The notes under the pieces: generated by a model
Databases searched by the model: none
Seen by the model: only the letters and a program-made list of their open reading frames with translations
What the model was told of the DNA's origin: nothing
Shown: positions 12,795 through 16,769 of the stretch, piece after piece
How positions within the stretch are numbered: position 1 is the stretch's first letter
Layout of the letters: the number at the start of each line of letters is the position of its first letter
Program-made: the position numbers and the translations under genes
Sequence record: PQ249395
DNA: 64,000 bases
Direction: 5' to 3' (one strand)
Source of the DNA: Escherichia phage Pu-Krd-SF1

Positions 12795-13685
12795 ATGTCA
12801 GTAGTAATTAATAATGTCAATGCAGTAATTAAATCATTAGTTAATAAAAAAATGATGAATGAATGGACTGTACTTCGCCGTGGAGAGCCAGATAAATTTT
12901 TTCATAGATTTAACCCAACTTTGGATTTGAATGTTATCGACAAAGATGTTCATGCAGAAATTTTAGATAAGTTTAAAGTTGATATTGGATTTGGATTAGA
13001 AAAACATCTACAGCGAACAAACGGGTCTGGAATGAGTTTATCTAATCGTATCATGAAAGCCCTTAATAAAATTGGAGCGTTGTCTCGCATTAATGCGAGT
13101 GAAATCCTTCGTAATTATAATAAAGGATATGACCTTTATGGTCGACTAATGCCAAAATTATCATTCGATCAAATGATTGCGGATTTGTGGAAAAATCAAC
13201 GACGATTATTAGCATTAGGCGCTCGATTAGCTAAAGGTCTAGATAAACAAATGATTTTTAAGACCAATAATACAGAAGACCTTAAATGCTTTAAATTTAG
13301 TATTCGCGGAGATGATTATTACATCAGAGCTTGCTCTACAGATTATGTTAATATGGGACATCATCTCTGTTTAGCTTTTGAAGTTTTAAAAGAAGCTGGA
13401 ACATTAGAATATACGTCTGGTGCTAAATGCCCGATTGGTTCAAATTGCATTTTGATTTATCGCCCGAATGAATCCAGTTCAACTACATTGCCTACAAAAC
13501 CTGTACCAGTTCGTAGTAACGAAAAACATTCTGAACAAATTGATTATTTTAATAAGCAGATTGAAGAGCTGAATATTTCTATTCAACAGTATGATGATGA
13601 AATTTTCAGACTATCTGGATTGAGTAGTAAAGCTAAATCTGAGCGTGAAAAGTTAATTAAAATCGTTGATTTACTTAAATCTTAA
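12795..13685 (+). CDS. Hypothetical protein, member A of a tandem four-paralog family (C-terminal coiled coil)
   Basis: ATG 12795 with GAGGAAAAT RBS; central motif WKNQRRLLALGARLAKGLD shared with three downstream neighbours. Confidence 0.6.
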   Translation: MSVVINNVNAVIKSLVNKKMMNEWTVLRRGEPDKFFHRFNPTLDLNVIDKDVHAEILDKFKVDIGFGLEKHLQRTNGSGMSLSNRIMKALNKIGALSRINASEILRNYNKGYDLYGRLMPKLSFDQMIADLWKNQRRLLALGARLAKGLDKQMIFKTNNTEDLKCFKFSIRGDDYYIRACSTDYVNMGHHLCLAFEVLKEAGTLEYTSGAKCPIGSNCILIYRPNESSSTTLPTKPVPVRSNEKHSEQIDYFNKQIEELNISIQQYDDEIFRLSGLSSKAKSEREKLIKIVDLLKS

Positions 13686-13693
13686 GGAATACC

Positions 13694-14728
13694 ATGAAAA
13701 CTCGTTCTCAAATTGAAGATATGGTTCGTAACGCTAGCGATACTCGTGATGTTATGACATTTTTGTGTGAAAATAATTTAGACCTTGATAAAATTAATCG
13801 TGCTATTCATCACTTTAAATATCTGAATAGCAGCGAATGGGTGCGTAATTTTAGTAAAGCAGGGTATATTACGCAAATGACTGCTCGTGAACAGCTCACC
13901 GATTTCTGTAAAACTATTGATTATAAAAATCCTCTATTTGTTCAAGGCGTTGGTCAAAGTAAGGTCGATTTATCATCTGGATTTTTCAATCCAAATCATT
14001 ATCGTATTGAATGGAGATTTATTGCTCTGATCCGTAGACAATTAAAGCAAATTTTGTCGACGGCTAGTCGATTAAAAGGTTCTGACATTAACTTAAAGAA
14101 CCTGAAATTTGATGGTTATACTCTTCAGATGGAAGTAAGACCATTAAAAGAAAATAACAGAACTGCACGAATTAGCTTTAAACCTAATACAAAAAATTCT
14201 CTTTCAATTTGCGAATGCCTTAAATCGCAGTTGACAGAAGCATTTAAGTATATGGATGTTGTTGCCGCTGTTCAGTCTAAGATTTCACAACATTTCGAAC
14301 GATTTAAATTAGACACAACAACATATGAACTTGATATGATCGTTTCATTTAAATATGAATTTTTGAGAAAGGACGAAGTCCCGCAAGAAAAAAAGCAAGA
14401 AGTGCAAGATAACTTAAATTTAAATTTAAATTTATCCAATTACTTATCAAACGATCCTAAATTTTGGATGTATAGTTCAGGTAATAAGGATGCATGGAAA
14501 TTCAATAAAGTGAATTTTCTTCCTGATGAAAATCCGAGTCTTAAACCTGTTGAAAAATGGCATGCAGATGCGATTGAAAAGTCTATCAAGGCAGTAGATG
14601 ATGAACTCGTTAAAGCAACTAATGAAGTGTTAGAAGCTGAAAAGATGCTAGAAAAAGCTCAAGAAAAAGTCAAAAATCTCACGAAGCAACGTTCTAAACT
14701 GAACAATGCACTAAATGCACTGAACTAG
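13694..14728 (+). CDS. Hypothetical protein, paralog-family member B
   Basis: 344 aa; motif IRRQLKQILSTASRLKGSD; C-terminal heptad-like coiled coil; NLNLNLNL repeat. Confidence 0.6.
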   Translation: MKTRSQIEDMVRNASDTRDVMTFLCENNLDLDKINRAIHHFKYLNSSEWVRNFSKAGYITQMTAREQLTDFCKTIDYKNPLFVQGVGQSKVDLSSGFFNPNHYRIEWRFIALIRRQLKQILSTASRLKGSDINLKNLKFDGYTLQMEVRPLKENNRTARISFKPNTKNSLSICECLKSQLTEAFKYMDVVAAVQSKISQHFERFKLDTTTYELDMIVSFKYEFLRKDEVPQEKKQEVQDNLNLNLNLSNYLSNDPKFWMYSSGNKDAWKFNKVNFLPDENPSLKPVEKWHADAIEKSIKAVDDELVKATNEVLEAEKMLEKAQEKVKNLTKQRSKLNNALNALN

Positions 14729-14758
14729 TTTACTTTACCACAGGGATGTGGTATAATG
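14728..14758 (+). promoter_or_regulatory. T4-type early promoter
   Basis: GTTTACTTTACCACAGGGATGTGGTATAATG; one mismatch from the promoter at 61545. Confidence 0.6.
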
Positions 14759-14785
14759 TTCTTATTTTCTACTGAGGAGATTAAT

Positions 14786-15787
14786 ATGACTCGTAACGAA
14801 TATATCAAATCATTCAATAGCGTTATTGATGATAAAGCTATACCGATGTTTGGCCAAAATAGCGTTCTTTCTATTATCAATCAATGGCTCAATAGTGTTG
14901 ATGCAGGTATTGTTTCTTCTACTAAATTTATTCATGAAATTCGTAAAATTTCTAGTCGTGTAGATAAAGATGTTATCAAGAAAACCTTTAAAGAGTCTCG
15001 TCTTCTTTCATATTTGGTTAATCGGGATATTCTTGGTAATTTTGGGAAAGAAATTAAACGAACCAAAGATGTAGTAGGATATAATTGGTTCGGTGATGTT
15101 AATACTTATCATCTTAATACTAAAGAAGACCCTGAGAATATTTTTACTCGTCGTTGGGTTAGTGAATTTAGGAGTTTTACGAAGCAAATTCTAAAATCAG
15201 CTTCTAAATTATGTTATGGCGATTATCGTCAAATTCATCCCTTAGCTGATGATATGATTATAGCAGAAGAATATGAGCTTGATAAAAACAAAGTAGCTAT
15301 TTTTATTAATTACAGATTTTTTACACCAGAAACTAACCAAAGGAATATTAATAAATTTTTCTCAATTGCTAGCACTATAACTCGTCAATTAGAAACCGCA
15401 TTACTTTGTATGGAAACAGTAGAAAATATTCATACGTATCCTTTTAAGAATATATGCGGTTGGGAAGGATACAAAATTGTAGTTAGTCTTCGTGAAGTGA
15501 AATGTGCTTATTCACCGACTGATAAAGAAATTTACCAACAAAAATGTGATGAAATTGTGAATATTCCTAAAGAAGAAACTACACTTGAGGAACTAATGGA
15601 TAATCTTGATGATTCGCCTGAACCGGTAGAAATTCGTCCAGAAGTTATTGCACTAGAAAAAGCTTATAAAGAAGTTCTAGAAATTTCTAATAAAGCGCAG
15701 AAAGAATATGAGAAGGCTAAAAGGATTTGGGAAGAATCTGTTAATCGCCTTGATCGTCTTGAACAAGCTTTACAGTTAATTAAGTAA
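14786..15787 (+). CDS. Hypothetical protein, paralog-family member C
   Basis: ATG 14786 with GAGGAG RBS; motif FTKQILKSASKLCYGD; C-terminal coiled coil. Confidence 0.6.
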   Translation: MTRNEYIKSFNSVIDDKAIPMFGQNSVLSIINQWLNSVDAGIVSSTKFIHEIRKISSRVDKDVIKKTFKESRLLSYLVNRDILGNFGKEIKRTKDVVGYNWFGDVNTYHLNTKEDPENIFTRRWVSEFRSFTKQILKSASKLCYGDYRQIHPLADDMIIAEEYELDKNKVAIFINYRFFTPETNQRNINKFFSIASTITRQLETALLCMETVENIHTYPFKNICGWEGYKIVVSLREVKCAYSPTDKEIYQQKCDEIVNIPKEETTLEELMDNLDDSPEPVEIRPEVIALEKAYKEVLEISNKAQKEYEKAKRIWEESVNRLDRLEQALQLIK

Positions 15788-15839
15788 TTTAAAGCCAAGG
15801 ATGGCTCGGAGTATAAATCATTAACCAAGTGAGAAGAAC

Positions 15840-16769
15840 ATGAAAACTCGTAAACATTATATTGATTATTTTGACAGTCTTATTACTAAACATCGTAATT
15901 ATCAGATCGGGCACAGAGCAGTAATCAATAATATTCTTCGTGATTTCCTTCAATATGTTGGCCAGGAAAATCATATCTGTAAAGATACTCAAAACGCTTA
16001 TTCTCATTCGTTAGGCAATTTGCTTCAATGGTTTAAACGTTCTCGTCTGTTATCTTCTACTGTAGCTAGCGATAACATTAAAAACTTTATGAAGCCGAGC
16101 TTCATTAAATCTGCGACATCTATAACCGATTTGGTTGAATTTACTATTGTTAACGATGTTAAAAAGACCCATTTGGCTGATTGGTTATCTACCATTCCTG
16201 AAACTAAATTTGCTGATAAATTCGCTTGTCAATTCAATAACCAAGTGAATATGCTTTTTAAGCATGCTCGCAAACTATTTACCGCGGGTGATGACCGTAC
16301 AAATACAGTTCATGTTAAGGATTGGGTTATTGCTGATGAAGTAACACACAAGCCGGGTGGTTCATCAGTATTAATTAATATCCAGGTTCCTTATTACTAC
16401 TCACGTAATCTCGGCACCATGACAGCTAGAGAAATTAATAAGCATAACAAAACTGTTCGTTCGTTGTCTTATAAACTCTGCACGATGGTGGAGATGATGG
16501 ACGTAGTGGAAATGTATGATGAAACCGAAGATAATGGTTCAATGTTATACAGTTCACGTATTCTAATTAAACTGAAGAATCCTAATACATATAAGCCAGT
16601 TGTAAAAGAACCTAAAATAGAAAAAGTTGATAACTTGAGCGAAGAACGTGAATATCTCAATGCTCGTTTGATTGAAGTTGAAGCCCAGATTGCCGAACAC
16701 ACCAAATTGTTAAAAGCTCTTAATGCAAAAGCAAATGGTTTACGTAATGCTATTGAGGTATTGAAATGA
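15840..16769 (+). CDS. Hypothetical protein, paralog-family member D
   Basis: 309 aa, MKTRKHY start like member B (MKTRSQI); C-terminal coiled coil. Confidence 0.6.
   Translation: MKTRKHYIDYFDSLITKHRNYQIGHRAVINNILRDFLQYVGQENHICKDTQNAYSHSLGNLLQWFKRSRLLSSTVASDNIKNFMKPSFIKSATSITDLVEFTIVNDVKKTHLADWLSTIPETKFADKFACQFNNQVNMLFKHARKLFTAGDDRTNTVHVKDWVIADEVTHKPGGSSVLINIQVPYYYSRNLGTMTAREINKHNKTVRSLSYKLCTMVEMMDVVEMYDETEDNGSMLYSSRILIKLKNPNTYKPVVKEPKIEKVDNLSEEREYLNARLIEVEAQIAEHTKLLKALNAKANGLRNAIEVLK

Follow-up and report, generated by a model that had tools for sequence, protein, structure and literature searches.

Four large genes stand side by side upstream of nrdC in the T4-type Escherichia phage Pu-Krd-SF1, and the question they raise is whether proteins with so little sequence in common derive from one ancestral gene and help the phage against host defenses. 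An earlier note on a stretch of 64,000 nucleotides of this genome (sequence record PQ249395; the whole 64-kb stretch is called the window below), made from the letters alone, described them as a tandem array of four divergent paralogs with C-terminal coiled coils. The window is a T4-type genome (Tequatrovirus), and the four consecutive open reading frames (ORFs) are present on its + strand with predicted products of 296 to 344 residues, as the note had it. Gene order in the T4 reference and in phage ime09 identifies them as the orthologs of T4 nrdC.6, nrdC.5, nrdC.4, and nrdC.3, referred to here as genes A, B, C, and D, respectively (Table 1). Profile, bridging-sequence, and structural evidence leads us to place nrdC.3 to nrdC.6 in one superfamily, against the three separate families of unknown function into which Pfam and PHROGs divide them, with the membership of A being probable. 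One of the four, gene B, is very probably an antidefense factor, judging by its orthology to a T4 gene of published function.

At the sequence level, relatedness is detected for a single pair. Pairwise blastp was significant for C and D (expect [E] value 2.7e-9, 26% identity over 226 residues) and non-significant for all other pairs. Hidden Markov models (HMMs) built from homologs gave no cross-matches between the A, B, and C/D families, and PHROGs likewise joins C and D in one family and keeps A and B separate. The description of the four proteins as otherwise highly diverged is thus accurate, and because searches of this kind detect C and D only, a four-way relationship had to be sought by profile-profile comparison and by structure. 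C and D aligned in hhalign at 100% probability (E 2.4e-54); their paralogy is certain. For B, a first hhalign comparison with close homologs only gave a weak match to C (8%, E 0.004). Searches by tblastn retrieved diverged nrdC.5-like genes (21 to 28% identity) from Dhakavirus, Gaprivervirus, and related phages, and after addition of the Dhakavirus and Gaprivervirus sequences B matched C/D at 77% probability (E 2e-5), the B-C alignment being collinear over three conserved blocks. A second profile-profile comparison gave E 6.6e-5 at 64% probability.

To calibrate the scores, we shuffled the columns of the query alignment 150 times per comparison. None of the shuffles reached the score of B versus C/D (43.9; null, 15.0 +/- 2.4), and controls with a reversed template peaked at 22.4. 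A bridging sequence links the same families: gp057, the one copy present at this locus in Klebsiella phage F48, shows an end-to-end match to the C/D HMM (E 1e-12), and its last 70 residues match the B HMM (E 8e-11), including the motif P-x-E-(K/R)-(Y/H/W)-(H/F)-A. The placement of B in the superfamily of C and D is well supported by these profile matches. Together with the result for A given below, the four-way paralogy announced in the earlier note was therefore borne out to different degrees: it is shown for C and D, and its support is good for B and moderate for A.

The note had based this family on a central motif, R/K-x-x-L-x-x-I/L-L-x-x-A-S/G-x-L-x-G. In that literal form the motif fits B only; a relaxed version, h-L-x-x-(A/G/S)-(A/S)-(R/K)-L-x(1-3)-G-(D), is found in all four proteins at comparable positions (LLALGARLAKGLD, ILSTASRLKGSD, ILKSASKLCYGD, and MLFKHARKLFTAGDD). 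About 40 residues N-terminal of the motif, the proteins have a second block in common (LSRINASEILRNYNK, ITQMTAREQLTDFCK, LSYLVNRDILGNFGK, and LSSTVASDNIKNFMK), with the pattern "LS..(A/N)..(I/L)..(F/Y).K", and a further conserved helix follows the first beta hairpin. Three of the four start with M(K)TR, and the form MKTR is indeed that of two of them, B and D; A lacks this N terminus.

Each protein also ends in a heptad-like segment. We compared the a/d hydrophobic periodicity of the last 49 residues with that of 2000 shuffles of the same residues, and it was significant in all four cases (Table 1). A strict C-terminal expression, L..[AV][LIV]..L[KN], is matched by B and D alone and was rejected as a family signature. 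In RB69 nrdC.5 (positions 14345 to 15247 of locus L017; 300 residues), the heptad helix is missing from the C terminus, where an unrelated sequence, ...WTRHKLSSVMLKVL, stands instead; a frameshift may have altered this end.

An AlphaFold2 model of C, computed with 48 sequences including D, reached a mean predicted local distance difference test score (pLDDT) of 84.2 and a predicted template modeling score of 0.68. Its N-terminal part comprises a helical region (residues 3 to 84), three short strands (88 to 110), and the motif-bearing helices (119 to 148). There follow a beta hairpin (158 to 174), a long helix (185 to 208), a second hairpin (212 to 235), a linker, and a helix spanning residues 285 to 332. 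In the models of both B and C the linker is of low confidence and the end of the protein is one unbroken helix, of 59 residues in B (285 to 343) and 48 in C. From the C model, the element order of the poor B model, and the blocks aligned across all four proteins, the architecture predicted for the family starts with N-terminal helices, the "LS" block, and the motif helix; a small alpha/beta sandwich comes next, and a variable linker connects it to an amphipathic C-terminal helix of about 50 residues.

Foldseek searches with the C model against BFVD returned 18 matches at E < 1e-3. Those bearing organism names are all proteins of T4-like phages, mostly 280 to 374 residues long, from phages of Enterobacter, Pectobacterium, Yersinia, Acinetobacter, Klebsiella, Erwinia, Serratia, and Escherichia. 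Among the matches are an nrdC.3-type protein (E 3e-7) and proteins of the Acinetobacter phages Acj61, Acj9, and fHyAci03. The same search against the PDB gave nothing significant (best match, E 0.04), and profile searches of PDB sequences with the four proteins returned only coiled-coil or designed-helix noise. PADLOC contained no family matching any of the four, and nothing in NCBIfam came near its cut-offs.

The earlier note considered none of the four genes assignable. Gene B is assignable by orthology: it is 94.4% identical to T4 NrdC.5 (over 340 residues), occupies the same slot between nrdC.6 and nrdC.4, and matches Pfam DUF7235 with 406.7 bits (cut-off 30; E 9.4e-122) from residues 1 to 344, over model positions 1 to 307 of 307. 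Srikant, Guegler and Laub (eLife 2022; PMC9391042) evolved T4 on toxIN hosts, and one evolved clone carrying compensatory deletions lost the ability to infect strain ECOR17. Deletion of dsr1 in ECOR17 restored infection by this clone, and plasmid-borne dsr1 protected MG1655 against it. Conversely, nrdC.5 supplied in trans enabled the T4 deletion clone to plate again on MG1655 with ECOR17 dsr1 (PMC9391042). Of the host-interaction or antidefense functions that the note proposed for the array, antidefense has thus been established by experiment for the T4 counterpart of B. Dsr1 contains a SIR2 domain, has NADase activity, and is thought to deplete nicotinamide adenine dinucleotide (NAD+). Its bilobed sensor, a homolog of that of Avs7, is switched on by the major capsid protein of the phage (Nature 2026; PMC13581612).

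Given this orthology, gene B is very probably an anti-Dsr1 factor itself, and in the literature that we searched NrdC.5 is the sole reported phage inhibitor of Dsr1. T4 NrdC.5 is also the closest known relative of the other genes, C, D, and probably A being distant paralogs with only some 15 to 25% identity to it. Its three neighbors nrdC.3, nrdC.4, and nrdC.6 become immediate candidates for counter-defense; that they do act in this way is plausible, at a little under an even chance in our estimate. A functional analogue is DSAD1, the DSR2 inhibitor of SPbeta-like phages, which shuts off a defense-associated sirtuin NADase by binding its sensor region. The internal proteins IPI to IPIII of T4 and the dmd/tifA/adfA "anti-TA island" resemble the array in being non-essential, clustered, variable among T-even phages, and host-range determining (PMC9391042). 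They differ from it in that they are unrelated genes or small head-packaged internal proteins, whereas the array consists of four large tandem paralogs with a presumably common fold.

These elements can be combined into a single account, in which the four paralogs are early-made, oligomerizing inhibitors of host immune sensors. The array proteins would be produced early in infection, before the late capsid protein appears, and would oligomerize through their C-terminal heptad helix. The central alpha/beta domain would then bind host immune sensors, so that the sensor is kept from engaging its trigger, the capsid protein. The other three paralogs, and their alleles, would act likewise on other sensors or sensor variants, and an arms race with the host sensors would account for the differences in gene number and for the swapping of alleles from one phage genus to another. 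Taken as a whole, we consider this explanation reasonably likely. Its most specific part, the direct plugging of a sensor combined with coiled-coil oligomerization, is put forward tentatively. A broader version is speculative and, in our opinion, improbable: the nrdC.3-nrdC.6 superfamily would be a set of dedicated, modular "immune-sensor plugs" with a conserved scaffold, composed of the N-terminal helices and of the C-terminal coiled coil that renders the protein multivalent, and a central alpha/beta domain that is swapped rapidly, each of the paralogs and alleles blocking a different capsid-sensing receptor of the Avs7/Dsr1 type. The array would then mirror the receptor repertoire of the host and possibly mimic a structural surface of the phage. 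Sensors of this type are fused to at least 20 types of effectors, and the array provides a testable link to them.

Several points weigh against the proposal of early-made, oligomerizing sensor inhibitors. The binding of NrdC.5 to Dsr1 is our deduction; the searchable literature contains no mechanism for NrdC.5 and no function for nrdC.3, nrdC.4, or nrdC.6. The rescue experiments concern T4 NrdC.5 and ECOR17 Dsr1, and the T4 allele is another than that of the window. The central domain of B is nearly invariant in Tequatrovirus (residues 121 to 195 are 98 to 100% conserved among 58 homologs), which runs counter to the expectation of a rapid arms race acting on that surface; the insertions and deletions of B within this genus are located in the linker. 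Oligomerization through coiled coils is a prediction, drawn from the heptad periodicity and from the long single helices that end the models of B and C, which were computed as monomers. The AlphaFold2 model of B is unreliable (pLDDT 49, 62 to 93 in the final helix) because the family alignment is shallow, with 24 sequences at at least 80% identity. From the motif helix onwards this poor model has its elements in the same order as C, and the fold attributed to B would follow from its homology to C. Lastly, the comparison of A with C/D alone is marginal, at E values of 0.009 to 0.025 and probabilities of 2 to 4%.

The family might counter defense by a different route, by masking the capsid protein, by targeting the SIR2 effector or NAD+ metabolism, or indirectly via host factors. 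We regard this alternative as unlikely. It is compatible with the published evidence on NrdC.5, which consists of genetic rescue only, and with the fact that phages counter NAD+ depletion by metabolic routes such as NARP1 and NARP2; the basic proteins A, B, and D (isoelectric point about 9.2) could also bind nucleic acid or acidic proteins. However, neither a catalytic motif nor a match to an enzyme family was found in Pfam, NCBIfam, PADLOC, or the PDB, and no fold match to enzymes was significant. Early expression is easier to reconcile with a protein that acts pre-emptively on a host target than with the chaperoning of a late protein, and several diverged paralogs suit several protein targets better than one shared metabolite.

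A second alternative concerns the unity of the array: only nrdC.5, nrdC.4, and nrdC.3 would be paralogous, and nrdC.6 would be an unrelated gene whose tail and short motif arose by convergence or chance. The absence of HMM cross-matches between A and the other families, its standing as a family of its own in Pfam and PHROGs, and its different N terminus are in keeping with this idea. So are the hhalign E values of 0.04 to 0.09 against B and the marginal comparison with C/D, whose score (23.5; null, 16.2 +/- 3.4) was reached by 8 of the 150 shuffles. Nevertheless, when A was compared with the merged B+C+D profile, its score of 37.0 (E 2.3e-4; z = 7.2; null, 15.5 +/- 3.0) was reached by none of the 150, and the alignment covers residues 76 to 146 of A, that is, exactly the two blocks recognized by eye, in the same order and with the same spacing. 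Structure argues in the same direction, as the nrdC.4 model matches the predicted structure of nrdC.6 from phage JS10 in BFVD (Foldseek E 1.1e-4, probability 1.00, TM scores 0.40 and 0.46). A is also similar to the others in size, in its position in the array across genera, and in its C-terminal heptad helix. A bridging protein, Ent31_82 of a Karamvirus, is located at the same position and matches the A profile (E 6.4e-5 over 200 columns). We therefore judge an unrelated nrdC.6 to be rather improbable. On the strength of the merged-profile score, the structural match, and the shared architecture and position, A is a probable member of the superfamily, of which it is the most diverged member and the weakest link.

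T4 already has a tail terminator, gp15. It is highly improbable that the array proteins are virion or morphogenesis proteins, an idea raised by the likeness of the central domain to tail-terminator or tail-completion proteins (lambda gpU, SPP1 gp17-like, DUF3168): the score of that likeness is under a convincing threshold and common to unrelated folds, Foldseek found nothing in the PDB below E 0.03, the array proteins have additional parts (a helical domain at the N terminus, a linker, and a C-terminal helix of 50 residues), and their genes are early, non-structural, and located in an early non-essential region, where viable evolved T4 clones carry deletions that removed no essential gene, one clone being without nrdC.5 function (PMC9391042). 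The basic character of A, B, and D led us to reject mimicry of DNA in the manner of Ocr or Arn.

The genes themselves are already known, being annotated in hundreds of genomes as hypothetical or, wrongly, as thioredoxin, and one of them has a published function. The grouping of the anti-Dsr1 protein in one superfamily with its three neighbors and with single-copy genes at the same locus in other T4-like phages appears to be absent from Pfam, PHROGs, and the searchable literature. The nrdC.4 model is the only confident one in the family and can guide the mutagenesis of NrdC.5.

The position of the locus is constant, between nrdC.8/nrdC.7 and nrdC.2/nrdC.1/nrdC, and the number of genes that it holds varies. 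Tequatrovirus has four copies. Three are present in RB69 (Mosigvirus), which has nrdC.6, nrdC.5, and an nrdC.3-type gene and lacks an nrdC.4-type, and three in Dhakavirus and Gaprivervirus, which have nrdC.6-, nrdC.5-, and nrdC.4-type genes and lack an nrdC.3-type. Klebsiella phage F48 has one recognizable copy and Karamvirus Ent31 one candidate, the protein that matches the A profile. Salmonella phage S16 and Acinetobacter phage KARL-1 have one candidate each, based on position and a heptad-like tail, with weak or absent profile matches. The KARL-1 candidate is an ORF of 343 residues directly upstream of nrdC, and it gave no significant profile match to the A, B, or C/D family. Locus searches that started from F48 gp057, KARL-1 gp164, and S16 gp52.4 found only near-identical loci, and proteins of about 258 residues near the array in S16, F48, and Ent31 were rejected as unrelated to the family. 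Among 1.84 billion cluster representatives, the C/D profile matched only 10 proteins, none of which forms a bridge to A or B. The sequence families are therefore restricted to phages closely related to T4, whereas the fold extends across the Straboviridae.

Since the genera retain different subsets of the genes, the duplication that gave rise to C and D is older than Tequatrovirus, Mosigvirus, and Dhakavirus and was followed by differential loss. Diversification in situ, as the earlier note put it, is therefore too simple a description, because the C/D split predates the genera and because allele exchange or old polymorphism contributes in addition to local duplication. The protein identities to T4 are 94.1% for A, 93.1% for C, and 61.6% for D. 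The nrdC.3 gene of the window is 76.8% identical to that of RB69 (positions 15370 to 16314 of locus L017), a phage of another genus, versus 60.6 to 61.6% to T4, and the genes that flank it are 90 to 100% identical to those of T4. Between D and its relatives, the 70 N-terminal residues and the coiled coil are conserved, whereas the central residues 71 to 265 are only 20 to 70% identical. This pattern suggests that genera have exchanged alleles or that an old polymorphism has its center in the central domain, which the natural variants of nrdC.3 thereby mark as the region that changes.

Two variant loci were also observed. In a natural chimera (P0056; metagenome, ENA), an in-frame deletion joins the middle of nrdC.5 to nrdC.3 at an FN(K/NQ)VN microhomology, with loss of nrdC.4, and the paralogs are therefore able to recombine into chimeras. 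In an otherwise intact Tequatrovirus genome (IMG/VR UViG 2974742932; positions 7054 to 8086 of locus L008), nrdC.4 is split into ORFs of 193 and 158 residues and is probably a pseudogene.

Table 1. Positions in the window of the nrdC.6-nrdC.3 array, its sequence features, and neighboring elements
Feature	Position	Strand	Description
Hairpin	10250-10269		Between nrdC.11 and nrdC.10
T4 early-promoter-like site	10300-10329	+	Upstream of nrdC.10; consensus match only
T4 early-promoter-like site	11739-11768	+	Upstream of nrdC.8; consensus match only
nrdC.8	11797-12324	+	175 aa
Gene A, nrdC.6 ortholog	12795-13685	+	296 aa; phrog_2257; PF26899
Motif helix of A	13176-13253	+	Residues 128-153, ..NQRRLLALGARLAKGLDKQ
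C-terminal heptad segment of A	13527-13682	+	Residues ~245-296; p = 0 of 2000
Gene B, nrdC.5 ortholog	13694-14728	+	344 aa; DUF7235/PF23882; phrog_2351
Motif helix of B	14009-14086	+	Residues 106-131, ..RRQLKQILSTASRLKGSD
C-terminal long helix/heptad of B	14546-14725	+	Residues 285-344; p = 0; pLDDT of the model 62-93
T4 early-promoter-like site	14728-14757	+	GTTTAC-N17-TGGTATAAT; directly upstream of C; consensus match only
Gene C, nrdC.4 ortholog	14786-15787	+	333 aa; PF26897; phrog_1435; start most likely
Motif helix of C	15149-15226	+	Residues 122-147, ..RSFTKQILKSASKLCYGD; modeled helices 119-130 and 132-142
C-terminal long helix/heptad of C	15638-15784	+	Residues 285-333; p = 0.002; AlphaFold2 helix 285-332
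Gene D, nrdC.3 ortholog	15840-16769	+	309 aa; PF26897; phrog_1435, as gene C
Motif helix of D	16212-16295	+	Residues 125-152, ..NQVNMLFKHARKLFTAGDD
C-terminal heptad segment of D	16623-16766	+	Residues ~262-309; p = 0.0025
nrdC.2 homolog	16766-17077	+	103 aa
ORF between gene 49 and nrdD	19190-20011	+	273 aa

Of the family assignments in Table 1, those to phrog_1435 have E values of 3.6e-166 (C) and 2.1e-115 (D), and that of A to phrog_2257, over residues 1 to 296, has one of 1e-150. PF26899 and PF26897 were taken from the precomputed labels of homologs rather than from a direct scan; the former is carried by 105 of 105 homologs of A, the latter by all homologs of C and by the chimera P0056, in which nrdC.3 makes up the C-terminal half. 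Over the 4.1 kb that include the array, the window is 100% identical to Escherichia phages Pu-Krd-SF4, SF3, and SF6 and 95 to 96% identical to many further coliphages, and 654 phage records match this region.

The start of gene C is most likely at position 14786, giving 333 residues (MTRNEY...), rather than at 14756, which would give 343. The ATG at 14756 falls within the -10 element of the T4 early-type promoter closest to C, a GAGGAG ribosome-binding site is found 5' of 14786, and the GenBank annotation and the starts of homologs (MKTR.., MTRN.., and MTRS..) agree with the downstream position. This promoter-like site is nearly identical to two others upstream (Table 1), the three having the form GTTTAC-N17-TGGTA(C/T)(T/A)AT. 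The site at 14728 probably drives C, D, and the genes downstream, and the one at 11739 is the nearest candidate promoter for nrdC.8-nrdC.7-A-B. Because of these three consensus matches, the array genes can be provisionally attributed to early transcription units; T4 nrdC.5 has been termed an early gene (PMC9391042). Between nrdC.11 and nrdC.10, a perfect 8-base-pair GC-rich hairpin, AGGGAGCC-TTCG-GGCTCCCT, is followed by a run of T residues and is terminator-like on both strands.

Upstream of the array are nrdC.11, nrdC.10, nrdC.9, nrdC.8, and nrdC.7, and downstream of it nrdC.2, nrdC.1, and nrdC, which encodes a thioredoxin-like protein; from nrdC.8 to nrdC the order is the same as in T4. GenBank records of nrdC.3 to nrdC.11 homologs are often labeled "thioredoxin" or "Mur ligase domain-containing protein." The former label was rejected for the array genes, as no thioredoxin or glutaredoxin family in Pfam matches them even at E <= 1, and this corrects a widespread misannotation that seems to have spread from the locus name nrdC.x. 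Pfam found no Mur ligase domain in the four proteins either.

A search of the rest of the window revealed no further paralogs. The product of nrdC.8, just upstream of the array, also has a charged, helix-like tail, ...ERIETYKKQRAERQNTLRKFEERLKTVLA; it does not match the family HMMs. The nrdC.2 homolog ends in a CxxC...CxxC zinc ribbon that weakly resembles the zinc-finger region of the PADLOC Cas12f/Cas12u4 models (E 5e-4 to 1e-3). Between gene 49, which encodes endonuclease VII, and nrdD, the window contains a 273-residue ORF annotated as a homing endonuclease in an identical GenBank record, at a spot where T4 has no gene.

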